DNA of 64,000 nt from Capsulimonadaceae bacterium (GTDB taxonomy: Bacteria; Armatimonadota; Armatimonadia; Armatimonadales; Capsulimonadaceae), in NCBI GenBank assembly GCA_965215505.1, contig OZ244065.1, positions 4,608,001-4,672,000 of the forward strand, given 5' to 3'. The notes below the pieces were generated by a model that did no database searches, was not told the DNA's origin, and was given only the letters and a program-made list of their open reading frames with translations. The position numbers and the translations under genes are program-made. Positions 819-27,229 of the stretch are shown here, piece by piece; position 1 is the first letter of the stretch; the number at the start of each line of letters is the position of its first letter.

Positions 819-968
819 ACTCAGATTATACCCGATGGGGCCACTGCTGACGATGAACTTGCTACGCGCCCACCTGCTCTGACGACACTGGCAGAGGCAT
901 CCACCCCTGAGACTGGCCGAGTTCCCCTCCTGGCCCACGAACACAGCAACCCCCCTCCACATCAAACG

Positions 969-1568
969 TCACCCGCCCAACACCCGCGACCGCTGTTCCC
1001 GGACCCGCTCGATGGCCTCGGCCAGCAGGGCGCGGTGGCCGGCGTCGTTGAGCCAGGTGCTGGCCCCCGACGAGTGGGGCAGGGGGATGTAGGTCGTGCC
1101 GTACAGGTCGAACGTGTGGCCGACGGCCTGTTCCAGCGACATGCGCGGCAGGAACGTGTCAACGGACATCTTGCCGAACAGGATCACGACGCGGGGCCGG
1201 ACGAGTTTCCACTGCGCGTCCAGCCATGGGCGGCAGTTCGCGCGCTCCTTCGGGGAGGGAGCGCGGTCCGTACTCTTGCCCGGCAGGCGGCCCGGAAAGC
1301 ACTTGGTCAGGGCCGTCATGTAGACCGTCGTGCCGATGTCTTCGGGCGTGAACCCGGCCTCGCACAGCCAGCCGATCAGCTTGCGGGCCGCCGGGCCGAG
1401 GTACATCCGGTCCCCGCGCAGGTCGCTCAGGCCGGGTGCCTGGCCGACGAGCAGGAAGGGGGCGGGGGCCTGTCCCCAGGCGAGCGGCGGCGGCGAGATG
1501 GGAAAGCCGTCCGCCTCGCAACGGCGGCAGGCGCGGATTTCGTCGTGGAGCAGTTCGAGTTCGATCAC
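969..1568 (-). CDS. Uracil-DNA glycosylase family protein (family 4/5-like)
   Basis: CRRC, GQAPG, TKCFPG, ERANCRPWL and LPHSSG motifs. GTG start at 1568 chosen over the longer ORF, which runs into a promoter. Confidence 0.85.
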   Translation of the reverse strand: MIELELLHDEIRACRRCEADGFPISPPPLAWGQAPAPFLLVGQAPGLSDLRGDRMYLGPAARKLIGWLCEAGFTPEDIGTTVYMTALTKCFPGRLPGKSTDRAPSPKERANCRPWLDAQWKLVRPRVVILFGKMSVDTFLPRMSLEQAVGHTFDLYGTTYIPLPHSSGASTWLNDAGHRALLAEAIERVREQRSRVLGG

Positions 1569-1603
1569 GAGAAGATTGTACCAGAAAGAATTCCGAGAAA
1601 CCG

Positions 1604-1648
1604 TTGACAGCGCATGTACGAACGTGCTACTATATTTTAACGCTGTTA
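1604..1648 (+). promoter_or_regulatory. Sigma70 promoter and TetR operator 1
   Basis: TTGACA 1604-1609, 18 bp spacer, TGnTACTAT 1625-1633, then palindrome TAAC-GCT-GTTA 1638-1648. Confidence 0.7.
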
Positions 1649-1670
1649 GAAAATAAACCGAGGTTAAGAG

Positions 1671-2285
1671 TTGGGCGTCAAAGAACGGCGGGAAAGGCAG
1701 AAACAAGAAACGCGCGAAGGCATCCTCGCCGCCGCGCGCAAAGTCGCCCGCGAGAGCGGATGGGGGGCGGTCACCATCCGCCGCGTGGCCGAGATGATCG
1801 AATACAGCCCCCCGATCATCTATGAATACTTCGCGAGTAAAGATGCTCTTTTGGGCGACGTTCAGCGGATCGGCTTCGACCTGCTGGCAGACGCGATGCG
1901 CGCGTCAGGGAATGGGGTTGCCGACCCGGCCGAGCGCATGGCGCAGATGGGCCGAGCCTACTGGCGGTTCGCCCACGAGTCCCCCGAACTTTTTCAGGTC
2001 ATGCACGGCTGGGACAGCACGGCCGTGCCGATGGAGCGAACGCTTGCCGGAGCGCGCAAGTCGGCCGCCGTCGTATATGAGGCCCTGGAAGACTGGGCGC
2101 GGGCGGAGGGAGTCACCCTGCACGACCCCCAGGGGGCGGTCGAGACGCTGTGGGCGCTGCTGCACGGCCTGATTACGGTGGGGATGTTGGACCGGGTGGG
2201 CGGAGGCCCGGAGCGGGCGGAGGGCCTGGCAGTGCAGGCGCTCCAGGATCTGCTATTCGCCTGGCGCAGCAGAGGCAGCCGGTAG
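1671..2285 (+). CDS. TetR/AcrR family regulator (WHG-type C-terminal domain)
   Basis: HTH VTIRRVAEMIEYSPPIIYEYFASKDALL; C-terminal WALLHG. Confidence 0.9.
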   Translation: MGVKERRERQKQETREGILAAARKVARESGWGAVTIRRVAEMIEYSPPIIYEYFASKDALLGDVQRIGFDLLADAMRASGNGVADPAERMAQMGRAYWRFAHESPELFQVMHGWDSTAVPMERTLAGARKSAAVVYEALEDWARAEGVTLHDPQGAVETLWALLHGLITVGMLDRVGGGPERAEGLAVQALQDLLFAWRSRGSR

Positions 2286-2308
2286 CCTCTTTTTATTTGC
2301 GCCTATAT

Positions 2309-2319
2309 TAACAGCGTTA
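2309..2319. promoter_or_regulatory. TetR operator 2
   Basis: TAACAGCGTTA, the exact reverse complement of the 1638-1648 site, in an AT-rich spacer before the epimerase. Confidence 0.65.
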
Positions 2320-2351
2320 GATTTTATTACTTCAATCAGAAGGAGAAGCAC

Positions 2352-3347
2352 ATGGACACCCTCAACAATCACCGAAGCGAACTGCACGTCATTTTCGGCA
2401 CCGGGCCGGTCGGCCTGACATTGGCCGATGAACTGCTGGCGCGGGGCAAAAAGGTCCGCATCGTCAGTCGCAGCGGCAAGGCTGCCACCCCTGCCGGTGC
2501 CGAGGTGCGGGCCGCCGACGCCACCGACCCCGACGCCGTGACGGAACTCTGCCGGGGCGCGGCCGTCGCCTATCACTGCATGAACGTCCCCTATGCCCAG
2601 CAGTACGAGGTCATCCCCCGGATGCAGCGGGCCATGATCGCGGGGGCCGGCGCGGCGGGGGCCATCCTCGTCATCACAGACACCCTGTACATGTACGGCG
2701 AGACGCACGGCAAAGTCATCACCGAGGACACCCCCCACGCCGGGACGACGCGCAAGGGGAGGATGCGCGGCCAGGTCGCCGCCGACTACCTCCGGGCGCA
2801 CCAAGAAGGCCAGGTGAAAGTCGCGCTGGGCCGGGCCGCCGACTTCTTCGGCCCGCGCGTATTCAACTCGTCGCTCGGCGACCGCGTTTTCCCGCCCGCG
2901 CTGGCCGGGAAGGCGGCCCAGGTGGTCGGCGATCCGGGCCTGCCGCACTCCTTCAGCTACATGAAGGACGTGGCGCGCGGCCTGGCGACATTGGGCGAGC
3001 GCCCCGAGGCCCTGGGGCGCGACTGGCTGCTGCCGGTCGCCCCCGCCGTTTCGACGCGCGAGATGATGCGCCTGATCGGGGAGGCCGCCGGGTGCCCGGC
3101 CCGCGTACAGGTCGTCCCGAAGTTCGTCATTCAGGCGATGGGGCTGTTCGACCCGCAGGCGCGCGAGTTCGTCGAGATGCTGTACCAATACACCGAGCCG
3201 CAGATCGTTGACTCCAGCCGGTTCGAGGCCGCCTTCGGCTGGAAGGCGACGCCGCTGGCCGAGGCCATCCCGGCGACGGTGGCCTGGTTCAAGGCGTCCG
3301 CCGCGCAGAAGGCACCGTCGGTGCCGGCCGCGGCGGCTACCCGTTGA
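2352..3347 (+). CDS. NAD-dependent epimerase/dehydratase (atypical SDR)
   Basis: VIFGTGPVG Rossmann motif, RAADFFGP, strong AAGGAG RBS. Confidence 0.85.
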   Translation: MDTLNNHRSELHVIFGTGPVGLTLADELLARGKKVRIVSRSGKAATPAGAEVRAADATDPDAVTELCRGAAVAYHCMNVPYAQQYEVIPRMQRAMIAGAGAAGAILVITDTLYMYGETHGKVITEDTPHAGTTRKGRMRGQVAADYLRAHQEGQVKVALGRAADFFGPRVFNSSLGDRVFPPALAGKAAQVVGDPGLPHSFSYMKDVARGLATLGERPEALGRDWLLPVAPAVSTREMMRLIGEAAGCPARVQVVPKFVIQAMGLFDPQAREFVEMLYQYTEPQIVDSSRFEAAFGWKATPLAEAIPATVAWFKASAAQKAPSVPAAAATR

Positions 3348-3409
3348 CCTGATCGAGCCGCCCGCGCCTTGCTAATCTGCCCCCTCTTGTGTTACACTAT
3401 GGATTGTCT

Positions 3410-4408
3410 ATGAACACGACCGGGGAAGAAGCAGAGCGCGTCCTGCGGGACGCGCTGGGCGACGCGCTCAAATGCGGCGAGCCGATGGCGCGGCACACGA
3501 CCCTGAAAGTCGGCGGCCCGGCCCGCTGGTTCTGGGGGGCTACGGACGTCGAGGCGCTGGCGCGTGTCCTGGGCGTCTGCGCCCGGCACTGCATCCCGTA
3601 CCTGTTCATCGGGCACGGGTCCAACCTGCTGATGAGCGATGCCGGGTACGACGGCCTGGTCATCCAGAACCGCTGCAAGGGGTGCGAGGTCGGCGAGGAG
3701 ACGCGGGCCGAGAGCGGCGTCTCCTTCGGGTCGCTGTTTTTGCAGACCGCGCGGGCCGGGTTCCGGGGCCTGGAGTGGGCCATCGGCATCCCCGGCACGG
3801 TGGGCGGCGCTCTGGTCAGCAATGCCGGGGCGTACCGGGGCAACATCGGGCCGCTCGTGCGCTCGGTGCGGGTCTTCGCGGACGGGGAGGACCAGACGGT
3901 CGGCCCCGAGTGGATGGAGTTTTCCTACCGCGACAGCCGCCTGCGCCGGGAGGGCGTCGGCAGCGCCGTCATACTCTCCTGCCTGCTGCACCTGTCCGAG
4001 CGGGGCGACCCGGACGCGATTTTGGCGCACGCCAAGGAATACCAGGCCCAGCGGCGGGCGAAGCAGCCCTACGCGCCCTCGGCGGGGTCCTTCTTCAAGA
4101 ACGTCATTGACCACGCCCTGGCCGAGAGCCTGCCGCACCTGCCTGCGGGCATGAAGGCGGCGGGAGTCGTCCCGGCGGGCTTCCTCAGCGAAGCCTGCGG
4201 CCTGAAGGGGCTGACCGTCGGCGGCGCGCAGGTGTCGGAGAAGCACGCGAACTTCCTCGTCAACGCCAATGGCGCGACCGCCTCGGATCTGCGGACACTG
4301 GCGGGCCGGGTCCGGGCGGCCGTGTCGGAGCGGTTCGGCGTGACCCTGGAAGAAGAAGTGCTTTACGTCGGCGATTGGAAGGATTGGTCCGAAAAGGCGA
4401 AAGAATGA
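3410..4408 (+). CDS. murB: UDP-N-acetylenolpyruvoylglucosamine reductase
   Basis: HTTLKVGGPA, GHGSNLL, GIPGTVGGA..NAGAY, SAGSFFKN, VSEKHANF and LEEEV motifs. Confidence 0.95.
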   Translation: MNTTGEEAERVLRDALGDALKCGEPMARHTTLKVGGPARWFWGATDVEALARVLGVCARHCIPYLFIGHGSNLLMSDAGYDGLVIQNRCKGCEVGEETRAESGVSFGSLFLQTARAGFRGLEWAIGIPGTVGGALVSNAGAYRGNIGPLVRSVRVFADGEDQTVGPEWMEFSYRDSRLRREGVGSAVILSCLLHLSERGDPDAILAHAKEYQAQRRAKQPYAPSAGSFFKNVIDHALAESLPHLPAGMKAAGVVPAGFLSEACGLKGLTVGGAQVSEKHANFLVNANGATASDLRTLAGRVRAAVSERFGVTLEEEVLYVGDWKDWSEKAKE

Positions 4409-5013
4409 TTGTACAAAGTCCCGAGCGAATAACCGATAGAGTATCCGTGGAGAACAAACCTTTCTTGAAACCTTACCTGGTTCGGCACGGCCGCGCCCTG
4501 ACGGGCGTCGTCTTCTGCGTCGCCGCCCTGCTGGCCGCCGCCCTCGCCGGCGGCTTCGACCGGCGGGTGAAGAGCGCGGACGTGCTGGGCGGCAAGTGGA
4601 GCGCCGACATCGCCTGGACCTCCGCCTCAGGCCGGGCCTACAACAAGACCATGCACACCGCCCTCTTCTTCCTGCCCGGCGGCGTGGCGGGGACGGTGAT
4701 CACCTTCCCGACCGGGGCGATCGGCGGGGCGGGGACCTACACGCTGAAGAACGGCCGCCTGACGATCCGCTGCACGGGCCTGAACCTCGACGGCCATTCC
4801 GTGCCTATGACCCCCTACGCCAAGTCGCCCTGGTTCCACGACACCGTCACCTACACCGTCCACGGAACCGGCGACAGCCTGATGCTTTCGCCGGTCGCCT
4901 ACGGCCCGACCTCGGCCCCCTGCTACCCCCTGCTGGCCTCCTCCTCGCCCCTGGTGTTCAGCCGCGTCGAGAGGTCTGACGTGCCGGAAGACGCGCCCGC
5001 GCCGAAGGAGTAG
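4405..5013 (+). CDS. Hypothetical membrane-anchored or exported protein
   Basis: ATGA-coupled to murB; N-terminal hydrophobic helix; GC3-rich codon use. Confidence 0.7.
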   Translation: MIVQSPERITDRVSVENKPFLKPYLVRHGRALTGVVFCVAALLAAALAGGFDRRVKSADVLGGKWSADIAWTSASGRAYNKTMHTALFFLPGGVAGTVITFPTGAIGGAGTYTLKNGRLTIRCTGLNLDGHSVPMTPYAKSPWFHDTVTYTVHGTGDSLMLSPVAYGPTSAPCYPLLASSSPLVFSRVERSDVPEDAPAPKE

Positions 5014-5041
5014 GGGAGAGAACCGGCGCTGAACCGCCGAT

Positions 5042-5102
5042 CTACACGGATGGGCCGCCCGCTTCGCGGCTTCGGACTTTAGGGGCACGATTCATCGCGC
5101 CC
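5042..5102. repeat. Degenerate palindromic repeat plus GTAG-type REP
   Basis: 5042-5076 resembles the arm at 8617-8650. 5079-5102 TTAGGGGCACGATTCATCGCGCCC resembles the REPs at 23830 and 47362. Confidence 0.65.
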
Positions 5103-5260
5103 ACTTTTCCTGCCGCGCCTTCTGCTGCCGCCGGGCCTTCTCCTGCCACCCGAACTTTCCCCCAGCCTCGCGTGTTCTCTCTGTGTTCCCTTGACCCGTT
5201 CGCCGGGTACAATGGAGCAAGTATTGCCCGCATTGACGCGGCGCATGGAAAGCAGGCACT

Positions 5261-6703
5261 TTGGCACTAGACAGCGTGGTCGGGACGCGGCGCGGGGGCG
5301 CGTCGGAGCATTCACAGGAGCATTCGGAAGACGGGATCGGGCCGCTGCCCGGCGTGACGGAGCCGGAAGAAACGGGCCGGAGCCTGCACCGGGCGGTGTG
5401 GATGCTGGCCTGGCCCTCCGTGCTGACCATGCTGCTCCAAACGCTCAACTCCTTCACGGATCGCTTCTTCGTCGGCCACCTCGGCTCGGACGCCCTGGCC
5501 GCCGTGGGCGTCGGCGGGCAGTTCATGTTCCTGCTGTTCTCGGTCGGCATGTCTATCTCGGTCGGCACGTCCGCCCTCGTCGCCCGGTTCACCGGCGCGA
5601 AGGAAGCCGACCAGGCGACCCTGGCGGCCAATCAGTCCGTCTGGATCGCCCTGCTGTCCGCCTTCGTCTGCATGGCGCTGGTCTGGCCGCTGCGGCATCT
5701 GGTCGTCGGCTGGATGGGAGTCAACTCCCACGCGGCGGGCCTGTGCGTCCAGTACCTCACCGTCACACTCCTCGGCATTCCCGCTCTGTTCCTGATGCTG
5801 ATCCTGAGCAGCGTCTTCCGTGGCCTGGGCGACACGGTGACGCCTCTGCGCGTCATGATCGGGGTCAACATCATCCACCTCGGCGGCGACTGGCTCCTGA
5901 TCTTCGGCAATTGGGGCTTCCCCCGGATGGGCCTGGTTGGCGGCGCGACCGCCCTGATCGCCTCGCAGGTCATCGGCGCGCTGCTCTACCTCTGGTTCCT
6001 GCGCGACTCGCCGGTGCGCGGGCTGATGACCCGGCTGAAGCGCCTGGACATGGAGTGGGCGCGGCGCATCCTGAACATTGGCCTGCCCGCCGCCGGTCAG
6101 AACCTTTCGCGCGTCCTGTCCATGATGATCTTCACCGGCGTTCTGGCCCGCTCCCCGCAAGCGACGGCGGCCGTGGCCGCCCTGACCATCGGGCTGACAT
6201 CCGAAAGCATCGCCTTCATGCCCGGCTTCGCCTTCTCCATGGCCGCCTCCACGCTGACCGGCCAGAACCTGGGCGCGGGCAAGCCGGACCGGGCCGAGCG
6301 GGCGGCCTGGGCCGCCCTGCTGCAAGGGCTGGTCGTGATGGTCTTCATGGGCGCGGTCTTCTTCACGTTCGCGACGCCCTTCGCGCACATCTTCACCCAT
6401 GACCCCAAGGTGGTCCCGCTCGCCGTCGCCTACCTCCGCATCGCCGCCCTGTCCGAGCCGTTCCTTGCCCTGGGCATGATCCTGACCGGCGCGCTCAACG
6501 GGGCGGGCGACACCAAAGCCCCCGCGCTGGCCGGCATCGTGACCATGTGGGTGGTCCGCCTGCCGGTCGCCTGGCTCGCCATCTATACCCTGGGCTACGG
6601 TGCCGTCGGCGCGTGGTGGGCGATGTCCCTCTCCACGGCCCTCAGCGGACTGGCCGCCCTCGCCCTGTTCAAGTGGGGGCGCTGGAAGCAGACGGTGGTG
6701 TAG
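5261..6703 (+). CDS. MATE family efflux transporter
   Basis: About 12 TM helices; LAWPSV..D.FFVGHLG.DALAAVG, RGLGDTVTP, GQNLGAGK, GAGDTK. Confidence 0.92.
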   Translation: MALDSVVGTRRGGASEHSQEHSEDGIGPLPGVTEPEETGRSLHRAVWMLAWPSVLTMLLQTLNSFTDRFFVGHLGSDALAAVGVGGQFMFLLFSVGMSISVGTSALVARFTGAKEADQATLAANQSVWIALLSAFVCMALVWPLRHLVVGWMGVNSHAAGLCVQYLTVTLLGIPALFLMLILSSVFRGLGDTVTPLRVMIGVNIIHLGGDWLLIFGNWGFPRMGLVGGATALIASQVIGALLYLWFLRDSPVRGLMTRLKRLDMEWARRILNIGLPAAGQNLSRVLSMMIFTGVLARSPQATAAVAALTIGLTSESIAFMPGFAFSMAASTLTGQNLGAGKPDRAERAAWAALLQGLVVMVFMGAVFFTFATPFAHIFTHDPKVVPLAVAYLRIAALSEPFLALGMILTGALNGAGDTKAPALAGIVTMWVVRLPVAWLAIYTLGYGAVGAWWAMSLSTALSGLAALALFKWGRWKQTVV

Positions 6704-6721
6704 AACACGTCTCTGAAGGGC

Positions 6722-6755
6722 AAAAAGCGGCCCGTCAGTCTTGCTGACGGGCCGC
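6722..6755 (-). terminator. Intrinsic terminator (U-tract on minus strand; possibly bidirectional)
   Basis: Perfect 12-bp stem GCGGCCCGTCAG/CTGACGGGCCGC preceded by A5. Confidence 0.75.
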
Positions 6756-7317
6756 CTCACGGAAGGGTATTCAGTTGCGAAAAGGGCCGAGGGAACAAAA
6801 GGACGTTTCCTACGCGGCCCGTCCCCGAGACGCTTGATTACGTCCCGCGTTAAACTCGGTGCCGGTGGGCCTCACGCCTTGGATGGTGCGCGGACGGCAG
6901 CGGCAAGGGACTGGGGCCAGGCCGGTCGGAAACCCTGGGGCGATTCCAGGGCGGTCATCTCAGGGCTGAGGCGGCCCGCGCTCCGGGAGCGGGGCATCGT
7001 AATGGAACTCTGAAAGCCGGTGAACGTGCATCTCATCCTCCGCAGCAGTCTGGAGCCGGCCCGTGGGGGCGGCGACAACACGACGGGATTTTCGGACGCT
7101 CGAACAACCTCCCTTTAATGGCGATGACACTACTGTACCCGAAAAACAATGTTTTGTTGTGATTGCGACAAAGATAACTTAAAGTCTCCACCCCTGGTAA
7201 ATGTGGGGGCGTTCGTGTCATAATGGATGTGGAATGAACAAGACCGGCACTGAAGCCGGCGCTCCGAGGGGGATGGGCCTCTTTCACTCGCTCCGCTTTT
7301 CCGAGAAAGGACCCAGA

Positions 7318-8331
7318 ATGACCAAGACCATCATCGCCGCCGCCGTGGCGGCCCTCTTCCTATCCGCCGGATTCTCCACCCGCGCTTCGGCGTGGGGGAA
7401 GACCGGGCACGTCTACGCCAACAGCGCCGCCGTCGGGACGCTGCCGCCGGACACCTCGCTCGCCAAGTTCTTCGGCGCGAACCAGGCCTTCCTCGCCGCC
7501 CACAGCAGCGACCCCGACGACTGGCGCGGGAAACTGCAAGTCGCGGGCGAAGGCCCACACCACTTCATTGACCTGGACGCCTACGGCACACCCTCCGACT
7601 TCGCCCTGCTCAACCTGCCCGTCAAGCGGGCGGACGCCGACGCCAAGTTCGGACACGACCTGGTGGAGAGCAAGGGCACGGTGGACTGGACCATTGAACT
7701 GTGGACCAGCCGCCTGGCCGACGCCATGAAGGGCACCGACCCCGACCTGATCCTGGCCGACGCCGCCGTACTGGGCCACTATGTCGCCGACTCCCACGTC
7801 CCCTTCCACGCCTCGGTCAACTATGACGGGCAGCAATCCGGTCAGCAGGGCATCCACGCCCGCTTCGAGTCGCAGATGGTCGAGAACACCATCAAGCTTT
7901 CCGACTTGACCCCTGCCCCGGCCCAGCCGATCACGGACATCCTCGGCGCGGCCCGCCTCTGGTCCGGCCAGAGCGTGGACCTCGTGCCGACGGTCTTGCA
8001 GGCCGACATCGAGGCCCGCGTCCAGGCGGCGATGGCCGGTAAAGCCGTCCCCGACGCCGGCCCACTGCCGGCCGCAAACGCCGGTGCGCGCCGCCCGCTT
8101 CCCAAAGACGGCAGCCCCGCCCCCGATTACTACACGGACAACCCCGTCTACTGGAAGACCTTCAGCGCCATCGCCCGCCCCATCGCGCTGGCCCGCCTGA
8201 ACGCCTCCGCCACGCACCTGGGCAGCGTCTGGCTTACCGCCTGGCAGCGCGCCGGCTCGCCCGACCTGTCCAAGCTGAAGGCCCCAACGGCAAATGTGCC
8301 GGTGCCTGTCGCGGACCCGGACGCGAAGTAG
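7318..8331 (+). CDS. Secreted S1/P1 nuclease / zinc-dependent phospholipase C family protein
   Basis: Signal peptide ending ASA, then WGKTGH; zinc-ligand motifs PDDWR, HHFIDLD, GHYVADSHVPFH, IHARFES. Confidence 0.85.
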   Translation: MTKTIIAAAVAALFLSAGFSTRASAWGKTGHVYANSAAVGTLPPDTSLAKFFGANQAFLAAHSSDPDDWRGKLQVAGEGPHHFIDLDAYGTPSDFALLNLPVKRADADAKFGHDLVESKGTVDWTIELWTSRLADAMKGTDPDLILADAAVLGHYVADSHVPFHASVNYDGQQSGQQGIHARFESQMVENTIKLSDLTPAPAQPITDILGAARLWSGQSVDLVPTVLQADIEARVQAAMAGKAVPDAGPLPAANAGARRPLPKDGSPAPDYYTDNPVYWKTFSAIARPIALARLNASATHLGSVWLTAWQRAGSPDLSKLKAPTANVPVPVADPDAK

Positions 8332-16902: not shown

Positions 16903-18030
16903 ATGACCTGTGACCAAATACAGCCGCTTCTAGACGCCTTCACCGCCCATGAACTGGGGTGGGGGACGGCCTGGCGCGTCCGCCGCCACCTCGCCGCCTG
17001 CCCCGCCTGCACGGCGGAACTCGCCGAAATCCACCGCCTTGACAGCCGCGTCCGCGCCTGGCGCGACGTGCCCGCCCCGGCCCATCTGCAAAGCCGCATC
17101 GCCGCCGCGCTGCCCTCCGCCCCGCCTGTTTCTGCGCCCCGCCGCCGCCCGGTCACGGCCCGCCGCGTTGCCGTTGGGCTGGTGGGCATGGCCGCCGCCG
17201 GGGCTGCCTTCTTCTGGCTCACACCGGGTCAGCCTGGACGACCGACTATGGCCTTTGCCGACGTGGAGCAGGCCATGGAGCAGGTACAAACCGTCTCCTG
17301 GGATGAGACGATGATGTTCTATCGGGCCGGTCATCCAGTGGAGCGCAGTGCCTCTCGTTGGACCAAGTGGCTGCGACGGAACCCGCCCGCTCTAGCGTCG
17401 AACGGTGGGTTCCAAGACGTGCGGTTCCAAGACGTAGAGGATGCAAGGGGCGATCTCACCCGGATCGCGCCGGGCCGCTATGTGGTCTTTAAGTTGCGCG
17501 ACCGTAGGGACGGCAGCATCGCGACGAAAGTAGAAGCACATATCCGAGAGATCACCCAGCCGCAGAACGCCCAGCCGCCGATCGGCCACGGCCTCTTAGG
17601 TGCCGGTGCCGACCGCGTCGAATTTTCACCAACGCGGCAGCGGCATGTTACCCTCGACGGTCAGGATCGGATCTTATTCACCCGTGACCAGGATATGATC
17701 TCAGTGTCTCGGGACAAGTCTGAAAATCATTCCTACTTCCACATAAAAGTCTGGGCGGACCCGATCACCCATCGTGTCGTCCGCATAGAGGCACATAGCC
17801 CTGACGGCGGGGGTAAGACGGGGCCAGACGAAATGGTCCTCACACGAAATAACTTTCACTATAACCAGACGCCCCCGCCGGGCGTGTTCGACTGGTCCCC
17901 GCCTCTGGGGGCAAAGATATATGGTGAGATGGATGGCTTCAGCGCTATGATGCATGAGATAACTCATGCTATGCTTTCTCAGAGACGCCATGCTGCCGCC
18001 CCCGATACCCCTGCGCCGTCTCGCCGGTGA
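16903..18030 (+). CDS. Membrane-bound zf-HC2 anti-sigma factor with an extracytoplasmic domain
   Basis: MTC..HLAACPAC, one TM helix, AFADV motif, C-terminal YNQTPPPGVF (LolA-like ending). Confidence 0.85.
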   Translation: MTCDQIQPLLDAFTAHELGWGTAWRVRRHLAACPACTAELAEIHRLDSRVRAWRDVPAPAHLQSRIAAALPSAPPVSAPRRRPVTARRVAVGLVGMAAAGAAFFWLTPGQPGRPTMAFADVEQAMEQVQTVSWDETMMFYRAGHPVERSASRWTKWLRRNPPALASNGGFQDVRFQDVEDARGDLTRIAPGRYVVFKLRDRRDGSIATKVEAHIREITQPQNAQPPIGHGLLGAGADRVEFSPTRQRHVTLDGQDRILFTRDQDMISVSRDKSENHSYFHIKVWADPITHRVVRIEAHSPDGGGKTGPDEMVLTRNNFHYNQTPPPGVFDWSPPLGAKIYGEMDGFSAMMHEITHAMLSQRRHAAAPDTPAPSRR

Positions 18031-18862
18031 GCCGCCTGAACGTCGCGGCGAAATGCTGGGACGACGAGAACCCGAGTTCCAGGGCCAGGTCGGTGACGGC
18101 GATGTCGCTGCCGGTCAGCATCCCCTGGGCCAGACGGACGCGCACGGCGAGCAGGTAACGGTGGGGGGAGACGCCCACTTCGCGGGTGAAGCACTCGACC
18201 AGGTGGTGCGCCGATACGCCCGCCAGACGGGCCAGGTCGGGCAGCCGCCAGGGGCGCTCGGGCTGATGGTCCAATAGCTCTTTGGCCCGTCGGACGGCGG
18301 GGTGGCGCAGGGTCAGCGAATGAGTTTCGCCCGGCGCGGGCGTCTCCGCCAGCCGGGCGGCTTCCAGGACGACGGCGTCCAGGGCGAGCCGGATGCCCGA
18401 AGTGCGGTGGGGCAGGGCCAGGGAGACCTCCCGGATGAGCTGCCGGAAGGGGGCCGTCAGGGCCTCGCCGCGTGGACGGAAGATAGGGGTGTCCCGTTGC
18501 CAGGCGGAGGCGAGTGCGGGCAGACGCGCGCAGACGGCGGCGAGATCAACAGCGGCGAAGAAGAAGTGGTGCTTGTCGTCGGGCCGGTCGTGCATCCGGT
18601 GCGGGACGTGGGGCGGGGCGGCGAAGAACGCGCCGGGCGTCAGCGTGTAGGTTTCGCCCGGAGCGTCCCAGCGGCTCTCGCCGCTGATTTGGAGGTAGAA
18701 CTCCCAGACGGCGTGGCTGTGGCTAGGGATGAACAGCCGCCGCGAGGCCCACTGCTCGCCGATGTGCGCCAGTTCGGGCACGTCGGCGTCCGGCCGGTCC
18801 GCGTGGAAGCCTGCCAGCACATCGGGCGGGTGCCCATAATGGGTGAGTGGATTTGTGGGCAT
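17969..18862 (-). CDS. AraC family transcriptional regulator
   Basis: Cupin HSHAVWE..H; C-terminal LARLAGVS..HL..F..EVGVSP..Y and LGFSSSQHFAATFRR. Confidence 0.92.
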   Translation of the reverse strand: MPTNPLTHYGHPPDVLAGFHADRPDADVPELAHIGEQWASRRLFIPSHSHAVWEFYLQISGESRWDAPGETYTLTPGAFFAAPPHVPHRMHDRPDDKHHFFFAAVDLAAVCARLPALASAWQRDTPIFRPRGEALTAPFRQLIREVSLALPHRTSGIRLALDAVVLEAARLAETPAPGETHSLTLRHPAVRRAKELLDHQPERPWRLPDLARLAGVSAHHLVECFTREVGVSPHRYLLAVRVRLAQGMLTGSDIAVTDLALELGFSSSQHFAATFRRLTGETAQGYRGRQHGVSEKA

Positions 18863-18935
18863 CTGCCGAAGATTCCATACATTCGCCCGAAACTCCTGCA
18901 ATCGCGTTCGCCCGCCCAGCGCGTACAATGAGGGC

Positions 18936-19793
18936 ATGACACTCACCCCAGACCAGGCGGCGCTGCTGCCCACCGACGACGAAGTCCGCCTCTACCGCGA
19001 GCGCGGCTTTTACCTGTCCCGCCCCCTCTTCACCGAGGAGGAGATTGACGTTGCCAAAAACGGCAGCGAGCGGTTCTACGCCCGCGACCTGGACGACCCC
19101 CCCTTCGCGATGCCGGACCGGTGGCGGCCCACCGGCGAGTACGGGGACGGCCTGCGGAAGCACGACTACGCCTCGTTCTTCAGCCACGGCCTGAGCGCCC
19201 TAATCCACCACCCCCTGCTCGCCGCCGTCGCCGCCCGGCTGGCCGATACTCCCGAGGTGCGGCTGTGGCATGACCAGCTCCTTTACAAGCCCACCGACAA
19301 CCCCGACAAGAAGGCAAACGTCGGCTGGCACACCGACCGGGGCTACTGGAAGACCTGCTCCTCGCCGAACATGCTGACCGCCTGGATACCGTTCCACGAC
19401 TGCGACGAGGAACACGGCACGATCACCATGATCGAGGGCAGCCAGCATTGGCCGGACAACACCCAGACCCTGAACTTCTTCAGCAGTGACCTGGAGGGCC
19501 TGGAAAAGCGGTTCGACACGGGCGGTAAGCCGGTCGTCAAGGTGCCGATGAACATGACGAAGGGCCAGGTCAGTTTTCATCACTGCCTGACGATCCACGG
19601 CAGCGGCCCCAACCGCCGCCCGGACCCGCGCCGCGCCATCGCCGTCCACTTGCAGGACAGGCCGAACCACTGGCAGGAATACCACTTCCCCGACGGTCGC
19701 CTGGGCCACCACGACAACGACGACCTGTGCCGCAAGGCGGACGGCATCCCCGACTACACCGACCCGAACATCTGCCCGACGCTCTACCCATAA
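18936..19793 (+). CDS. Phytanoyl-CoA dioxygenase (PhyH) family Fe(II)/2OG enzyme
   Basis: WHTD...IHGSGPN...RRA facial triad pattern. Confidence 0.9.
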   Translation: MTLTPDQAALLPTDDEVRLYRERGFYLSRPLFTEEEIDVAKNGSERFYARDLDDPPFAMPDRWRPTGEYGDGLRKHDYASFFSHGLSALIHHPLLAAVAARLADTPEVRLWHDQLLYKPTDNPDKKANVGWHTDRGYWKTCSSPNMLTAWIPFHDCDEEHGTITMIEGSQHWPDNTQTLNFFSSDLEGLEKRFDTGGKPVVKVPMNMTKGQVSFHHCLTIHGSGPNRRPDPRRAIAVHLQDRPNHWQEYHFPDGRLGHHDNDDLCRKADGIPDYTDPNICPTLYP

Positions 19794-19818
19794 GGCTTGC
19801 GAATAAAGGACTCCGACC

Positions 19819-20613
19819 ATGACACTCCAGCCGACAATCACGCTCACCGAGGAGCAGATCGCGTTCTACCACGCGAACGGCTTCCTCGCCATCGACTCCA
19901 TCACGACCTCCGAAGAGATCGAGCGCCTGCGCGGCGTCTACGACCGCCTGTTCGAGCAGCGGGCCGGACGCGCCGAGGGCAACCAGTTCGACCTGGCCGG
20001 GACGGACGAGGAGGGAAAGCCAGCCGCCCTGCCGCAGATCCTCGGCCCGCGCAAGTACGCGCCGGAACTCGCCGAGACGGTGTACGAGGCGAACGCCCGC
20101 GCCATCTCGGAGCAGCTCTTGGGGCCGGGCCTCGCGTTCACGGGCGACCACGCTATCTTCAAACCCGCCGGGGTGGGTGCCCCGACGCCGTGGCATCAGG
20201 ACGAGGCGTATTGGGACCCCAACCTAGACTACCACTCCCTGAGTGTCTGGATGCCTTTGCAGGAGGCGACACTGGAAAACGGCTGCATGGTCTTCCTGCC
20301 GGGCAGCCACAAGCAGGAGATCACGCCGCATCACAGTATCGGTGGCGACCCGCGCGTCCACGGGCTGGAGATGCTGGACGCCGTGAACGAGGCGGAGGCC
20401 GTCGCCTGCCCCCTGCCGCCGGGCGGCGCGACCTTCCACGACGCGCGCACGATGCACTTCACCGGCGCGAACCGCTCCGCCGTCCCGCGCCGCGCCTACA
20501 TCATCGGCTTCGGCCGGCCCGCGACGCCGCGCGCCGAGGCCCGCTCCTTCCCCTGGAACGAGGCCAAGCGGACCGCCCGCGACGCGCGCAGCCGGGCGGC
20601 GGGCAAGGCATGA
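19819..20613 (+). CDS. PhyH family Fe(II)/2OG dioxygenase
   Basis: TPWHQD, ENGCM, MHFTGANRS..RRAY. Confidence 0.9.
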   Translation: MTLQPTITLTEEQIAFYHANGFLAIDSITTSEEIERLRGVYDRLFEQRAGRAEGNQFDLAGTDEEGKPAALPQILGPRKYAPELAETVYEANARAISEQLLGPGLAFTGDHAIFKPAGVGAPTPWHQDEAYWDPNLDYHSLSVWMPLQEATLENGCMVFLPGSHKQEITPHHSIGGDPRVHGLEMLDAVNEAEAVACPLPPGGATFHDARTMHFTGANRSAVPRRAYIIGFGRPATPRAEARSFPWNEAKRTARDARSRAAGKA

Positions 20614-20755
20614 ACCGGCACTGGAAGTGCCGGTCTACTCTTGTGTGAAAACCCCTACGGGTTGAAGACAAGTGTGAAGACTAACGGCAGGTGGCTTGTC
20701 TGTGGTCGCGGAGCGACTTTCATTCCAGAGTGGGCCGGCACTTCCAGTGCCGGTT
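20613..20755. repeat. REPIN-like doublet (29-bp inverted arms)
   Basis: 20613-20641 and 20727-20755 are reverse complements with 2 mismatches. Each arm is GTRG-RCCGGCAC-TTCCA-GTGCCGGT. Confidence 0.8.
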
Positions 20756-20772
20756 GCGACCGTCGCCGGCTC

Positions 20773-20967
20773 TCAGGCGCGGAAGGCGGCGAGCAGCCTG
20801 AGCAGGTCACGCGCCGTGAGGTCCACGACCCTGGTCTCGGCGTCTATCCCTGCCGGCAAGGCTAGGGAGGCGCGGGACTGAAGTGGGGTGGGTTCGGGCT
20901 GTGGGGGGCCGGGCGGGGCGGCGGCCACCGTGTCAGGCTCTGGGTCTGCTTTCCGTTTGCGCGCCAT
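20773..20967 (-). CDS. 64-aa protein sharing the N-terminal motif of the adjacent KD-repeat protein
   Basis: AAAGGA RBS. IDAETRVVDLTARDLLRLL aligns with VDMNAKVGDMTVRQLSDIL in 21043-21678. Confidence 0.7.
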   Translation of the reverse strand: MARKRKADPEPDTVAAAPPGPPQPEPTPLQSRASLALPAGIDAETRVVDLTARDLLRLLAAFRA

Positions 20968-20994
20968 GAGGGATTGTCCTTTCTCGGAGATCCT

Positions 20995-21032
20995 GGCGGC
21001 CATCCTATCCCTTACGGGGAAGGATGGCCGCC
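20995..21032 (-). terminator. Stem-loop after the KD-repeat gene (transcript stabiliser or partial terminator)
   Basis: GGCGGCCATCCT...AGGATGGCCGCC, 12-bp stem, no clear U-tract. Confidence 0.55.
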
Positions 21033-21042
21033 CGGCGGTGCA

Positions 21043-21678
21043 TCAGCTTCCTCCGCCCTGGCCGCCACCTTGCTGGAGGGCGGCGACCTGCTGCTCCAGG
21101 CCGGTGACGCGCTGGATGAGCTGGTCAATGCCCTGCGCGGGGTCGCCCGGATCGGTGGGGATGTTACCCTCGGCCAGCTCCTTCTCGTTTTTGAGGACTT
21201 CGGACGCGATCGCCTTCTGCTCGATGAGCTGATTTTTGTCCTGGACGCGATCCTTGATGTTGTCCTTGATGCCGTCCTTGATTGTGTCCTTGTGGTCCTT
21301 ATGGCCATCCTTGATGTGGTCCTTAAGGTCTTTGTGCTCTTTGTTGTCCTTGCCGTCCTTGCCGTCTTTTTGTTCTTTGTGTTCCTTGTTGTCCTTGGTG
21401 TCTTTGGTGTCCTTGGTGTCCTTGTGGTCTTTGTTGTCCTTGCCGTCCTTGTGATCCTTAACGAACTCTTTGACCGGCTCCTTGATGCTCTCCTTGGCCT
21501 GCTCCTTGATGATCTGCTTCTCGAACACCTGCTTCTCTTGGACTTCTTTGGCCTTCCGGGGCGCGCTGCTGCCCAGGATGTCGGAAAGCTGGCGCACGGT
21601 CATATCGCCGACTTTGGCGTTCATGTCAACGGTCAGGTCGGGGCGGCTCTCGCCGCCGATGAAAGGCTCGTCTGCCAT
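21043..21678 (-). CDS. Lys-Asp/Glu repeat protein; putative ATP-grasp substrate / RiPP precursor
   Basis: AGGAG RBS; 211 aa; 15 consecutive K[DE]x triplets flanked by K[DE]xx units; C-terminal heptad helix. Confidence 0.85.
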   Translation of the reverse strand: MADEPFIGGESRPDLTVDMNAKVGDMTVRQLSDILGSSAPRKAKEVQEKQVFEKQIIKEQAKESIKEPVKEFVKDHKDGKDNKDHKDTKDTKDTKDNKEHKEQKDGKDGKDNKEHKDLKDHIKDGHKDHKDTIKDGIKDNIKDRVQDKNQLIEQKAIASEVLKNEKELAEGNIPTDPGDPAQGIDQLIQRVTGLEQQVAALQQGGGQGGGS

Positions 21679-21767
21679 CGTGGTTTTCTCCTGCCGGCGG
21701 TCATCGCCGGCGCTGTGAGTGGGTCGTGCTTGGGGAGACCGGCAGAAGGCCGGTCGGACCGGCCCGA

Positions 21768-22727
21768 TTACCGGTCGTGCGTCTTTCCGTCAGCCCCCTC
21801 CAGGCTGCCGCGCAGTAGGTGGGCCACCGCCTCGCTGATGGGCTGGCCCGTGTTGCTCTCGTAGAAGATGAAGCCGGGGGACGGGTTGACCTCGAAGCAG
21901 TAGTAGCGCCCATCCGGGGTCCGCCGCAGGTCTACGCCCGAAAGGTGCAGGCCCAGGGCGCGCGCCATCCCTACACACGCCTGCGCCACCGCTTCGGGAA
22001 TCTCGGTCTCCTCCAAGGTGATCGCCGCGCCCTCGCGGCGCGCGTAGCGGTAGTCATTGGCCTCGGAGTGTATCTCCGTGGGGAAGACGCGGTCGCCGAC
22101 GGTGTGGACCCGGATGTCCACGCCCTCGACGCGCTCCTGGAACTGGGTCGGGCAGTTGCGGACGCGCTCCAGGCGCTCCCCCAGATCCTCATCGGTCAGG
22201 CGATGCACGATGGATCGGACTCCGGAAAGCGACTTGTAGATGACGTCCCCGCCCCGCGCCTCGTAGAAGGCGCGGGCCGCCTCGGGGTCGGTCGTCGCCA
22301 ATGTCCGGGGCGTGAGCAGGCCGAACTGCTCGGCGAGGAACCCCTGGTAGATCTTGGAGTCGTTGCTGACCGAGGTTCCCGCCCGGTTGACGACGGTGCA
22401 GGGCAGGATTTCCAGAAGCTGCATCAGCGAGAGCTGGTACTCGGCCTCCGCCATCTGCTTCTCCATCTCGGAGAACTCCGGCCGCTCCGCCCCGCCCTTG
22501 AAGCTGACATAGCGGGCATAAACCCCGGTCAGTTCCGACAGGTCCAGGGTGCCTGCCGGGGATGTGATGCTGCCCCGGACGCCGCCCGCCCCGAGCTCCC
22601 AGGTGAGGTCGTAGCGGCCCGGATACTGGGCCTGGTCGAGAAACAGGTAGGGGTAGCCCATGTCGTCCAGGCGGGAACACATCAGCTCGGTCATGGCGTC
22701 TGCCAAGACGCCGCAGATGAGAATCAT
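21768..22727 (-). CDS. ATP-grasp ligase, RimK/MvdC-MvdD-like, motifs intact
   Basis: NDSKIYQ, PRTLATTDPEAARAF, VIYKSLSG, PTQFQERV..DIRVHTVG, DYRY, GVDLRR, CFEVNPSPGF. ATGA-coupled to the upstream gene. Confidence 0.92.
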   Translation of the reverse strand: MILICGVLADAMTELMCSRLDDMGYPYLFLDQAQYPGRYDLTWELGAGGVRGSITSPAGTLDLSELTGVYARYVSFKGGAERPEFSEMEKQMAEAEYQLSLMQLLEILPCTVVNRAGTSVSNDSKIYQGFLAEQFGLLTPRTLATTDPEAARAFYEARGGDVIYKSLSGVRSIVHRLTDEDLGERLERVRNCPTQFQERVEGVDIRVHTVGDRVFPTEIHSEANDYRYARREGAAITLEETEIPEAVAQACVGMARALGLHLSGVDLRRTPDGRYYCFEVNPSPGFIFYESNTGQPISEAVAHLLRGSLEGADGKTHDR

Positions 22728-23638
22728 GCACAGCCCCTTTCCTGCCCATCCGGGCCTGTGAGAAGCGCGGCCAGGCGCTCGACGATCTCCGCCTGGGCCG
22801 CCGGGCCGCAGGCATAAAGCTGCGGGACGCGGTCCAGGCCCAGGCAGTGCCACTCGTCCCCTGCTCCGACCGCCAATGAGAGCCGGAAGAAGGCCAGCCC
22901 CAGGCGCGTCCCGACCCGGACGCAGCGGTCGGCCAGGCCGGAGGGCGGCGTCCCGCACACCGCGCCGTCCGGGCCGACCAGCGTGACCCGTCCGCCGACG
23001 ACGAACGCCTCACACCGCCGACCAGCGACCTCCTCGGTCAGATGCAGCGGCAGGGCACCGTTCAGGGCGAGCAGCTTCTCGAATTCTTCTTCACCCTGGA
23101 TAGGGTAGGGGGAGGATCCGCTCAGGGCGGTATAGGTGACGGTCCCGGACACCCTTCGTCGGAAGCTGCGCGCCGCGTCCGGCGATGTCGTCACCAGCGT
23201 TCGGGGACGTGCGAAGGGCAGGTCGGGCACGAGGGCGGCCAGCGCGGGGGCGTTGAGGGAGGTCTTGTACCACAGGTCGGGCCGGAGGCGGTTGATGACG
23301 GGGCAGGCCGAGGTCCGGCCGGGGCTGTTCAGCCAGGCCATCCACAGTGCGTTCCACTCGGAGCAGACATACCGCCCGTCCGCCGTCCCGAAGTCCTCGG
23401 CGGGGAGGGGGATGCCGTAGAACCGGTACAGGACGCCGTCTATCTCGGAGAACGATACGTCCCGCCCTTCAAAACAGATGCGGCCCGCGCCGTCGGCGGG
23501 GGTCCAGGCGAACTCCATCTGCGGCAGGAGCTTGTCTTCGGGCAGGAACAGCGTCTCCCGCCCGCCCCGCGCCAGCCGTTCGAGTGTCCCCTGGCAGCAG
23601 AGGTCTTCCGTCCGGCCCAGAATCAGGATCACACCCAT
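22724..23638 (-). CDS. ATP-grasp-fold protein with degenerate catalytic motifs
   Basis: Same architecture (IDGVLYR, CPVINR, PRTLVTTSPDAARSF), but YTALSG, LTEEV and CLGLDRVP replace YKSLSG, FQERV and FEVNPSP. AAAGGAG RBS. Confidence 0.82.
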   Translation of the reverse strand: MGVILILGRTEDLCCQGTLERLARGGRETLFLPEDKLLPQMEFAWTPADGAGRICFEGRDVSFSEIDGVLYRFYGIPLPAEDFGTADGRYVCSEWNALWMAWLNSPGRTSACPVINRLRPDLWYKTSLNAPALAALVPDLPFARPRTLVTTSPDAARSFRRRVSGTVTYTALSGSSPYPIQGEEEFEKLLALNGALPLHLTEEVAGRRCEAFVVGGRVTLVGPDGAVCGTPPSGLADRCVRVGTRLGLAFFRLSLAVGAGDEWHCLGLDRVPQLYACGPAAQAEIVERLAALLTGPDGQERGCA

Positions 23639-23758
23639 CAGGTCTCCTTTGCGCGGCCCGCTTCGGCGGCGACCAGGAACGAAGAGCAAAAGAACGAACA
23701 AAAACAGAAAGGGAAGTACATTCGCGGCGAGAGTGCTTACAGGAAACCGGAACAGAGC

Positions 23759-23788
23759 AGTGTAGCATACAAGCGGGGGAGTTGTCAA
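23759..23788 (-). promoter_or_regulatory. Sigma70-type promoter of the ATP-grasp operon
   Basis: Minus strand TTGACA-18 bp-TACACT with TGn extension, about 120 nt upstream of the start. Confidence 0.65.
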
Positions 23789-23829
23789 GCCGGAACCGGA
23801 GTTGAGGACTGTGTCCGAAGAGGGGACGG

Positions 23830-23853
23830 GTAGGGGCGCGATTCATCGCGCCC
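23830..23853 (+). repeat. GTAG-type REP
   Basis: GTAGGGGCGCGATTCATCGCGCCC, identical to 47362-47385. Confidence 0.85.
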
Positions 23854-23938
23854 TTGGTCATCATCGCGCCCTCTCCTAATGCCAGTCTATAATCCATGCT
23901 ATAATACAGAAGGCCAAACGCGCAAGGATCAACCCGCC

Positions 23939-24733
23939 ATGCTGCAACACGAACAAGAACAGTCCTCTGAAACGCCCGCCGCCCAGACCCCCGCCGCCCA
24001 GATCCGCGTCACGTCGGAGGAGCTGGCCCAGGCGATCAACGCCCTGGAAGCCAGTAGGGATGAGGCCGCCCGCCATCTGGCCGGGACGGTCCCCATCGGC
24101 GAGGTGGTGAAGGAACTCAAGCTGGAAGCGACGCCCGAGGAGATCTGGGCGCAGGTGCAGCGCCAGCGCGCCCGCAAGGCGGCGGACGAGGCCGCCGCGC
24201 AGGCCGCCGCGATCCAGAAGGAGCAGGCGAACGCCACGCAGAAGGAGCAGGCGAACGCGGCCCAGGCCGTCGCCGCCGCGCAGGCGGCTGCCGCCCAGGC
24301 CGTCGCCGCCGCCCGGTCCGCCGCCCAGTCGGCGCAGGCCGGCGCACAGGTGTATGCGCGCCCGAAACGCCGTGGGCGGTGGTGGGCACCTCTCGGGATC
24401 GGCCTGCTGATCTACGCCGGGGTCCACGGGAGTCAGGTGCGTATCCATACTCCCGCAAACACTCCGGGGGTAATCACCGGGTACAACCGGACGCTGACCT
24501 TCAGCACGCAGGGCAAGAACGTGGAAGTGGCCGGCGGCAAGGATACAGTCACTTTGCGGGGGGACTGCCCGACGCTGATAATCACGGGGGATGATAACCA
24601 CATCCGTATCGTCGGCACCGTCGGGCGGGTCATCGCCACCGGTGACAACAACTCGGTCGTCTACACCCAGGGCAATGAACCTACGCTCATCGGGACGGGC
24701 GTCGGGAACCACGTCGCCCCGAGCAAGCCGTAG
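23939..24733 (+). CDS. Membrane protein with Ala/Gln coiled coil and a DUF3060-like beta-repeat C-terminus
   Basis: One TM helix, then V.G..D.V...GDC..L.ITGDDN.I...G.V..V..TGDNNSV repeats. Confidence 0.7.
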   Translation: MLQHEQEQSSETPAAQTPAAQIRVTSEELAQAINALEASRDEAARHLAGTVPIGEVVKELKLEATPEEIWAQVQRQRARKAADEAAAQAAAIQKEQANATQKEQANAAQAVAAAQAAAAQAVAAARSAAQSAQAGAQVYARPKRRGRWWAPLGIGLLIYAGVHGSQVRIHTPANTPGVITGYNRTLTFSTQGKNVEVAGGKDTVTLRGDCPTLIITGDDNHIRIVGTVGRVIATGDNNSVVYTQGNEPTLIGTGVGNHVAPSKP

Positions 24734-27089: not shown

Positions 27090-27229
27090 GTAGGGGCGAA
27101 CCTTGTGTTCGCCCTTCCTCTCTCGGTTCGCCCTTCCTCTCTCGGTTCGCCCTTCCTCTCTCGGTTCGCCCTTCCTCTCTCGGTTCGCCCTTCCTCTCTC
27201 GGTTCGCCCTTCCTCTCTCGGTTCGCCCT
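27090..27229 (+). repeat. REP followed by a 19-bp tandem repeat array
   Basis: REP at 27090-27114. GTTCGCCCTTCCTCTCTCG occurs 6 times from 27107, plus a partial seventh copy. Confidence 0.92.

Follow-up and report, generated by a model that had tools for sequence, protein, structure and literature searches.

What a bacterium gains from a protein composed largely of Lys-Asp and Lys-Glu repeats, and what the two ATP-grasp genes beside it do to that protein, is the question raised by a locus in a Capsulimonadaceae genome (assembly GCA_965215505.1). The window analyzed here is the whole stretch of 64,000 nucleotides (nt) from positions 4,608,001 to 4,672,000 of contig OZ244065.1, and coordinates refer to positions within it. 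The repeat gene (KD gene; 21043..21678, minus strand) is an open reading frame (ORF) of 211 amino acids (aa) and belongs to a cassette of four genes in the order grasp1, grasp2, KD gene, and the gene of a small 64-aa protein. The gene linkage, the folds, the catalytic residues kept or lost, and the conservation pattern observed here lead us to consider, with moderate confidence, the KD protein to be a large graspetide precursor of the repeat type in which isopeptide bonds are formed between Lys and Asp/Glu.

The KD protein has a three-part structure, with 38 conserved residues at the N terminus, 28 K[D/E] units, and an amphipathic helix, also conserved, at the C terminus. The repeat core (aa 58 to 144; 21247..21507, minus strand) begins with four 4-mers (KEQA KESI KEPV KEFV, aa 58 to 73), continues with 15 triplets from KDH to KDL (aa 74 to 118), and closes with seven mixed 4- and 3-mers (KDHI KDGH KDH KDTI KDGI KDNI KDR, aa 119 to 144). 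The translated ORF reproduces exactly the repeat order given in the original prediction, which had been made from the sequence without database searches. The 28 K[DE] dipeptides follow each other at a spacing of 3 in sixteen cases and of 4 in nine. The longest period-3 run of K[DE] comprises 16 unbroken units, while shuffles of the same protein gave a maximum of 3 and a mean of 1.2 (n = 5000). Charges are balanced over aa 57 to 143 (26 K and 26 D plus E), and 20 mutually overlapping pairs in the protein place K at position i and D or E at i+4. Tandem Repeats Finder (TRF) detected periods of 9, 27, and 36 in the gene with matches of only 72 to 75%, and its codons are mixed (AAG 24 and AAA 11 for Lys; GAC 23 and GAT 5 for Asp), which indicates that the repeats are old rather than recent slippage copies. 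A contig of a related strain (run X3, spanning 21069 to 23900) shows 19 differences from the window, all at or beyond 21933 and so outside the KD gene, for which neither insertions nor deletions are listed; this strain comparison covers DNA contigs only, from four runs of at most three studies.

In total, 93 proteins were retrieved by a word-indexed search, and the first 76 (E ≤6.6e-13, window protein included) were taken as the KD family. The approximately 75 homologs come from at least two phyla and share the same three-part plan. The proteins contain 16 to 37 K[DE] each (median 31) and have period-3 runs of up to 31, and the core plan of Lys plus acid is kept throughout this comparison of repeat number, which had been suggested earlier. 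The 4-mer/3-mer/4-mer layout emphasized in the original prediction is present in the window protein, but the 4-mer flanks are a feature of its clade only, and most relatives have 20 to 31 uninterrupted triplets. Conservation within the core is limited to Lys and Asp/Glu, which occur in a 1:1 ratio. The third residue is variable (H 515, Q 399, P 291, and T 129 of 1780 counted, with N and S also present), and this pattern over some 75 homologs bears out the earlier view that constraint acts on the protein and does not reflect DNA slippage. A collagen-like arrangement with Gly as every third residue was not found, the fixed residues being K and D/E and Gly occupying 17 of 1780 third positions. 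Cys is absent from 74 of the 76 proteins. Searches of Pfam, NCBIfam, and PADLOC gave no match for either the KD protein or the small protein, and a protein atlas search gave no usable match. Fused, longer forms of the KD protein were also sought; the two weak matches look low-complexity and were rejected. A genome-collection scan with the full KD alignment matched at least 600 stretches, 16 of which passed tblastn; it keyed on the low-complexity repeat, and the matches in loci L001 and L002 (L, G, and P numbers are our handles for loci, genomes, and proteins) start at the leader, most other listed rows covering repeat residues only.

A wider family became apparent when a profile of the 38-aa leader alone was run against 1.84 billion representatives, yielding 60 proteins with E ≤1e-3, of which 27 have E ≤1e-10. 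Of the 38 matches that were read, P0114 (a repeat protein of 435 aa) is clearly a false positive and P0143 is doubtful. The rest keep the three-part plan with a changed repeat, including K-hydrophobic-E triplets (P0142), KPExx 5-mers (P0131), KDR/KDF triplets (P0105), and some irregular Lys/acid-rich cores. All of these cousins end with a helix that has a V/I-(S/G)-G-L core and is longer than that of the KD protein, with 4 to 5 heptads. As judged from sequence, the constants of the wider family are the leader, Lys plus an acidic residue, and the C-terminal helix, and the Lys-acid spacing varies.

Both termini of the KD protein are under evident conservation. The leader (aa 1 to 38; 21565..21678, minus strand; EPFI..RPDLTVD..KVGD-TVRQLS-ILG), which had been described earlier as a leader-like region of about 40 aa, contains P5, F6, R12, P13, D14, L15, T16, G24, R29, L31, L35, and G36 as invariant residues in 10 of 10 locus-derived leaders, and P5, R12, P13, T16, and R29 are invariant in an alignment of 32 KD homologs. 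In the same alignment, R190, L194, and E195 are at least 90% conserved. The latter residues lie in the C-terminal segment GIDQLIQRVTGLEQQVAALQQ (aa 183 to 203; 21070..21132, minus strand), which has a V-(S/T)-G-L-E core and carries hydrophobic residues at a/d spacing through three heptads. An R-P-D-L-T-type leader motif was found in 71 of the 76 family proteins and the strict C-terminal helix motif in 61, so the terminal motifs, whose absence from homologs would have spoken against the original prediction, are conserved. An AlphaFold2 (AF2) model based on the homolog alignment shows an ordered leader, with a predicted local distance difference test (pLDDT) score of 85 to 90 over aa 11 to 30, two short strands, and a helix at aa 28 to 35. 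The C-terminal heptad helix proposed earlier was modeled at aa 180 to 204 (pLDDT 81 to 84). The 4-mer regions appear as low-confidence helices and the triplet region (aa 67 to 116) as coil with pLDDT <50, a result that does not favor the extended conformation with separate Lys and Asp faces put forward in the original prediction.

The association of the KD gene with the ATP-grasp genes was assessed from the enzyme side to avoid circularity. Metagenome contigs were searched with a grasp1 alignment, which gave 123 pattern matches and 32 loci. In 16 of the 32 loci, the KD gene lies directly beside the grasp pair, with the order KD-(small ORF)-grasp1-grasp2 in 10 and grasp1-grasp2-KD in 6; contig ends were too near the genes to judge KD presence in another 11. 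The grasp1-grasp2-KD order was also found in genomes, namely, an Armatimonadota metagenome-assembled genome (MAG) (L001), an Acidobacteriota MAG (L002), and L029 (G324). L001 has full synteny with the window, including the small ORF, two PhyH genes, and the AraC gene. In L066 (G623), a leader-family cousin directly follows a pair of grasp1-like and grasp2-like genes, which likewise share an overlap of 4 nt. This synteny ties the KD gene to the ATP-grasp genes and indicates that the KD protein is their likely substrate, in agreement with the original prediction. Of 401 genomes from the window's phylum, 4 have a strong grasp1 match, and two further matches lie near the threshold; the leader profile has matches in 2 of 401 genomes from the phylum to which L002 belongs. 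Most of the loci derive from soil-type metagenome records, and the family is sporadic in soil-type Armatimonadota and Acidobacteriota. Two loci have irregular KD genes. In L042 (1151-2316), the reading frame of grasp2 continues, with no intervening stop, into KD repeats and the C-terminal helix, which may reflect either a chimeric contig or a natural event (fusion or deletion). In L002 (7001-7544), the KD gene stops at 145 aa and the C-terminal helix lies in another frame (7452-7544), a break due to a frameshift or a sequencing error, probably a frameshift.

The two ATP-grasp proteins differ in their predicted activities. The best family models of grasp2 (319 aa; 21768..22727, minus strand), a predicted graspetide-type ATP-grasp synthetase, are TIGR04187 (3e-45), MvdD (2e-35), and MvdC (2e-30), and its best sequence matches in the PDB are PsnB (8e-23), MdnC (5e-22), and a PruB-like protein (3e-19), together with CdnC and AMdnB. 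All 19 homologs share K165, D225-Y226-R227, D266, and N281, and E279 is at least 90% conserved. Lys together with acidic and Asn residues provides the ATP and Mg ligands of ATP-grasp enzymes. The D-[F/Y]-R motif of graspetide synthetases has been described as critical (Carter et al. 2026, PMC13097080). With its conserved catalytic residues and D-Y-R motif and its position beside the predicted precursor, grasp2 is a predicted graspetide maturase-clade ATP-grasp enzyme. The grasp1 protein (304 aa; 22724..23638, minus strand), whose start was placed by alignment with homologs, has no Pfam match and matches TIGR04187 only weakly (E 8e-5). Its AF2 model (pLDDT 89.5) has MdnC, CdnC, AMdnB, PruB, and PsnB as the best PDB folds (E ~4e-17), and profile-profile alignment with grasp2 by hhalign gave a probability of 99.95%. 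In that alignment, K165, R206, H208, D266, E279, and N281 of grasp2 correspond to T170, E210, F212, S254, G267, and D269 of grasp1, and D-Y-R-Y-A of grasp2 is deleted. Since the catalytic residue set of grasp2 is replaced or deleted, grasp1 is predicted to be a non-catalytic paralog; the original prediction had spoken of ligases in the plural, which fits grasp2 but not grasp1, with neither the ATP/Mg nor the D-Y-R residues. The two genes overlap by 4 nt (ATGA), an overlap that recurs in L032, L036, L038, L039, L043, L048, and L066. A distant grasp1/grasp2 pair was also observed in L030 (G023; 920-8200) within a lasso-peptide-like cluster that, from reading of the translations, contains PqqD-like, transglutaminase-like, and HPr-kinase-like ORFs and an ATP-binding cassette transporter; the candidate precursor there is a 49-aa Ser/Glu/Lys/Gly-rich protein unlike the KD protein.

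The small protein that completes the cassette (20773..20967, minus strand, with the start at the second Met by alignment) has a basic MARKRK N terminus, followed by a sequence that copies the leader's second half. An alignment by hhalign of the small protein with the leader profile gave a probability of 88.7% and an E of 2.5e-6 over 20 columns. The small ORF directly follows the KD gene in 9 of 37 sources (the window, L001, L031, L033, L034, L036, L037, L039, and L055), all in the sub-clade nearest the window. Its family comprises proteins of 64 to 94 aa with a basic N terminus (MARK...) and one or two copies of the leader second half, and a database search gave only eight close relatives. In close strains, the small ORF has an in-frame insertion of 9 nt, which fits a coding sequence. 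The small protein may mimic the leader in trans, acting on the enzyme as an activator or a competitor.

A conserved leader and a core with donor Lys and acceptor Asp/Glu, as expected of a graspetide precursor, are both found in the KD protein. The following scheme is inferred from the observations above in all its chemical steps, in the heterocomplex, and in what each terminus does. Non-catalytic grasp1 and catalytic grasp2 would be produced in a fixed ratio from their overlapping genes and would act jointly. The 38-aa leader would dock the KD substrate on the enzyme, and the C-terminal V-S-G-L-E helix could possibly also serve in docking. With ATP, grasp2 would activate the side-chain carboxylates of Asp/Glu, and the epsilon-amines of Lys would attack them to form isopeptide (omega-amide) bonds, possibly many per molecule. 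A complex prediction of grasp1, grasp2, and KD residues 1 to 60, run without controls, scored 0.01 against a mark of 0.32, a value that speaks neither for nor against this scheme. Because the Lys of each KDx unit has an Asp at i+4, the KxxxD spacing of corallotide, local lactams are the leading guess for the bond topology. A lactam between Lys(i) and Asp(i+4) is the classic helix staple of peptide chemistry.

Corallotide of Corallococcus, which belongs to graspetide group 15, offers the nearest precedent. Its 22-kDa precursor carries five KxxxD lactams, the macrolactams being exclusively of the Lys-Asp kind, its TIGR04187-type synthetase needs a partner protein, and in the text consulted its function is given as not known, with no bioactivity found (Carter et al. 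2026, PMC13097080). The precedent supports the reading of the KD protein as a large precursor with Lys-Asp lactams, since both systems combine a large precursor that has a structured N terminus and a repeat core with a synthetase of the TIGR04187 type. However, corallotide has five separate KxxxD motifs as described there, whereas the KD protein has 28 contiguous K[D/E] units with 20 overlapping K/i+4-acid pairs. The partner of the corallotide synthetase is a 2-oxoglutarate-dependent oxygenase and that of the KD system is predicted to be a dead ATP-grasp paralog. The divergent 2OG-Fe(II) oxygenase (PF13640) and the beta-lactamase that strictly co-occur in group 15 are not conserved at KD loci, no beta-lactamase being present; the window has two opposite-strand PhyH genes (PF05721) as neighbors, common to L001 only, and the two systems occur in different phyla. 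Microviridin clusters (MdnB/MdnC and MvdC/MvdD) also contain two paralogous ATP-grasp genes of the graspetide fold beside a precursor that has an N-terminal leader with a hydrophobic P-F motif, and a Lys-acid lactam is among their linkages. Both microviridin enzymes are described as catalytic (Makarova et al. 2022, PMC8939145), unlike grasp1, which lacks the catalytic residues, and microviridin cores of about 14 aa with Thr/Ser esters are much unlike the Lys-based KD core. Repeat-core graspetides (plesiocin, thuringinin, and multi-core microviridins) resemble the KD system in having one leader, one enzyme, and many core units, with PsnB being the best PDB match of grasp2; the repeats of these graspetides are longer, contain Thr and Glu or Asp, and form esters, whereas the KD unit has 3 residues with Lys as the sole conserved nucleophile.

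Two less characterized groups are also relevant. Graspetide groups 34 and 35 are said to often have long precursors with repeating linkage-forming motifs, and group 34 includes extra proteins that match no Pfam or TIGRFAM model (Carter et al. 2026, PMC13097080), a property shared with grasp1 as far as the one-sentence description of those proteins allows comparison. The KD family may belong to group 34 or 35. In Branch 8 loci, an inactive ATP-grasp paralog lies beside an active one (Makarova et al. 2022, PMC8939145); according to the same source, which reports truncated inactive ATP-grasps only in this different branch, truncation has left the inactive protein with two N-terminal domains, peptidases are encoded at the loci, and no precursor was predicted, whereas grasp1 is full-length. 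The survey of Makarova et al., as described in the text consulted, took candidates of 150 aa or less, and the 211-aa KD protein therefore falls outside it.

Several observations weigh against the graspetide precursor reading. The grasp2 score of 154.6 bits compares with a cut-off of 350, its matches to TIGR04187, MvdD, and MvdC are each below the curated cut-off, and it lies far below all graspetide NCBIfam cut-offs. Five of the 32 loci (L047 and L049 to L052) contain the enzyme pair with no KD-like gene in the available flanks; these five form one clade with about 40% identity to grasp1, three of them being nearly identical, and their neighbors encode a cation-efflux protein and a DUF3500 protein. 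In L028 (G336), an ORF for an insertion sequence-like transposase (7031-7885) stands right after grasp2, at the site expected for the KD gene, which is missing within about 5 kb and from the whole 12 kb examined; substrate-gene loss or an assembly join could account for this arrangement. The spacing from Lys to acid differs by subfamily (+1/+4 in KDx, +2/+5 in KxE, and +2/+7 in KPExx), so that no single ring size appears conserved over the subfamilies at the level of sequence. Since the cousins have no common Lys-acid spacing, we keep long-range or inter-chain bonding in consideration. The cassette contains neither a protease nor an exporter, and a search for Peptidase_C39 (PF03412) that was positive for 7 of 14 control genomes gave no match in the window's own genome, a single contig of 96% completeness. 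It may be, therefore, that the product remains intracellular, perhaps retaining its termini. The KD leader, which we take to resemble loosely a double-glycine leader, had suggested export and cleavage by a peptidase-containing ATP-binding cassette transporter (PCAT), a route rejected for the window's genome, which is without Peptidase_C39.

The varied spacing bears most directly on the model of the original prediction, in which the C-terminal helix registers several chains and Lys-Asp/Glu bonds form between them to give a covalent oligomer or material. Lys/acid alternation that is kept while its spacing changes suits contacts between chains better than a fixed ring, the amphipathic helix is conserved across the superfamily and lengthens in the cousins, no exporter or protease is present, and the corallotide core is described as aggregating (PMC13097080). 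However, the characterized graspetide linkages cited in the literature consulted are intramolecular, and the conserved Gly in V-S-G-L makes the helix look like a recognition motif rather than a generic coiled coil, so we regard bonding between chains as unlikely. The family matches of grasp2 leave room for another chemistry, in which a free amino acid or amine is ligated to Asp/Glu, or a free acid to Lys, and the KD protein serves as a carrier or scaffold of the RimK or LysX/LysW kind. grasp2 does match RimK-family (1.6e-18) and LysX (3.6e-11) models, and RimK and LysX structures as well, but its matches to graspetide models and structures are far stronger, and the strict 1:1 occurrence of Lys with Asp/Glu in every subfamily would be left unexplained if one residue type reacted. 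Such decoration seems to us distinctly improbable.

The KD protein might also not be modified at all, being a disordered polyampholyte, such as a desiccation hydrophilin or a His/Asp metal binder, that travels with ATP-grasp genes acting elsewhere. The AF2 prediction of disorder in the repeats, the prominence of His as the commonest third residue, the Zn-transport/adhesin-type label that one source gives to the homolog P0043, and the predominantly soil-type origin of the loci would all be in keeping with this role. The tight adjacency in two gene orders, the conserved, ordered leader and C-terminal motifs, which are atypical of plain hydrophilins, and the presence of a leader-mimic gene in the same cassette make it very unlikely. 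We return to the KD protein as a graspetide precursor. A more speculative and doubtful extension of that reading is a covalently reinforced structural polypeptide, formed as an uninterrupted ladder of overlapping i-to-i+4 lactams (a hyper-stapled rod) or as an inter-chain assembly, for which the helix would set the register, grasp1 would hold the substrate, and the leader mimic would tune the enzyme. The accompanying suggestion, equally tentative, is that the cassette product is not a small secreted inhibitor.

Three features of the system are unusual, namely, the 3-residue Lys-Asp repeat, the full-length dead ATP-grasp partner, and the leader-mimic gene, the latter two as predicted here. No paper in open full text was found to describe a Lys-Asp triplet-repeat precursor or a dead full-length ATP-grasp partner, subscription papers and supplements being outside this search. 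If the proposed chemistry is true, the KD protein would carry the densest enzyme-installed isopeptide array of all ribosomal products, as many as about 26 Lys/acid pairs being placed within 87 residues, and would be made by a minimal system of three or four genes. It would test how a graspetide synthetase handles a 3-residue repeat and could offer a genetically encoded route to stapled or crosslinked polypeptides, and grasp1 would be a natural example of a pseudo-enzyme partner in the biosynthesis of peptides that are ribosomally made and posttranslationally modified (RiPPs). Beyond the KD proteins, the analysis delineates a broader family, as yet without a name, whose members combine a leader and a C-terminal helix with Lys/acid repeats that differ in period.

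The hairpin noted in the original prediction after the KD gene is real. It lies between the KD gene and the small ORF (20992..21035, minus strand; arms 20992-21011 and 21016-21035) and has 12 consecutive perfect pairs, a dG of -37.9 kcal/mol, and a z score of -4.6, with 0 of 200 shuffles folding as well. No U-tract follows it and a terminator scan makes no call there; the hairpin is strong and is not a canonical terminator. Among the loci compared, a similar hairpin occurs in L001 only (z -2.75). Nothing significant was found 3' of the KD gene in L033, L036, L029, L032, and L002, and L066 is borderline (z -1.9); L048 and L058, in which the KD gene is last, have canonical terminators. This distribution lends no support to the idea of the original prediction that the hairpin could make the KD mRNA more abundant than that of the enzymes. 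A sigma-70-like promoter candidate upstream of grasp1 (23759..23788, minus strand; TTGACA, 18 nt, TACACT) is the only promoter-like site in 20500-24200 (shuffle mean 0.3), as judged by consensus match alone. No Rfam match was obtained in 20400-24000.

Several other elements were observed around the cassette. Two PhyH-family dioxygenase genes and an AraC-type regulator gene (18843-20613, plus strand, and 17969-18973, minus strand) are convergent to it. By analogy with corallotide, the PhyH genes were considered as conserved tailoring enzymes and rejected, being common to the window and L001 only; elsewhere among the loci, PhyH is represented by one 37-residue partial match in L031. AraC-family genes lie divergently beside the cassette in L036, L037, L044, and L046, the match covering the DNA-binding part only, and an AraC-type gene may be a recurrent cassette regulator. 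Divergent from the cassette is also a gene for a DUF3060 protein with an Ala/Gln-rich N-terminal half (23879-24733, plus strand), and a weak partial match to this protein beside the KD gene of L057 is probably due to low complexity. Between the convergent PhyH and small-ORF genes is a 143-nt element (20613-20755) in which a 19-nt hairpin (CCGGCACT-3 nt-AGTGCCGG) occurs twice, as inverted copies. Contigs of four metagenome runs are approximately 20-fold deeper on 20705-20755 than on its flanks, which suggests a widespread repeat, of the repetitive extragenic palindromic (REP) or miniature inverted-repeat transposable element (MITE) kind, or a shared terminator module. A perfect tandem repeat with a 19-nt unit in 6.5 copies of 100% identity is located farther away (27107-27229), in a region with long repetitive ORFs on both strands.

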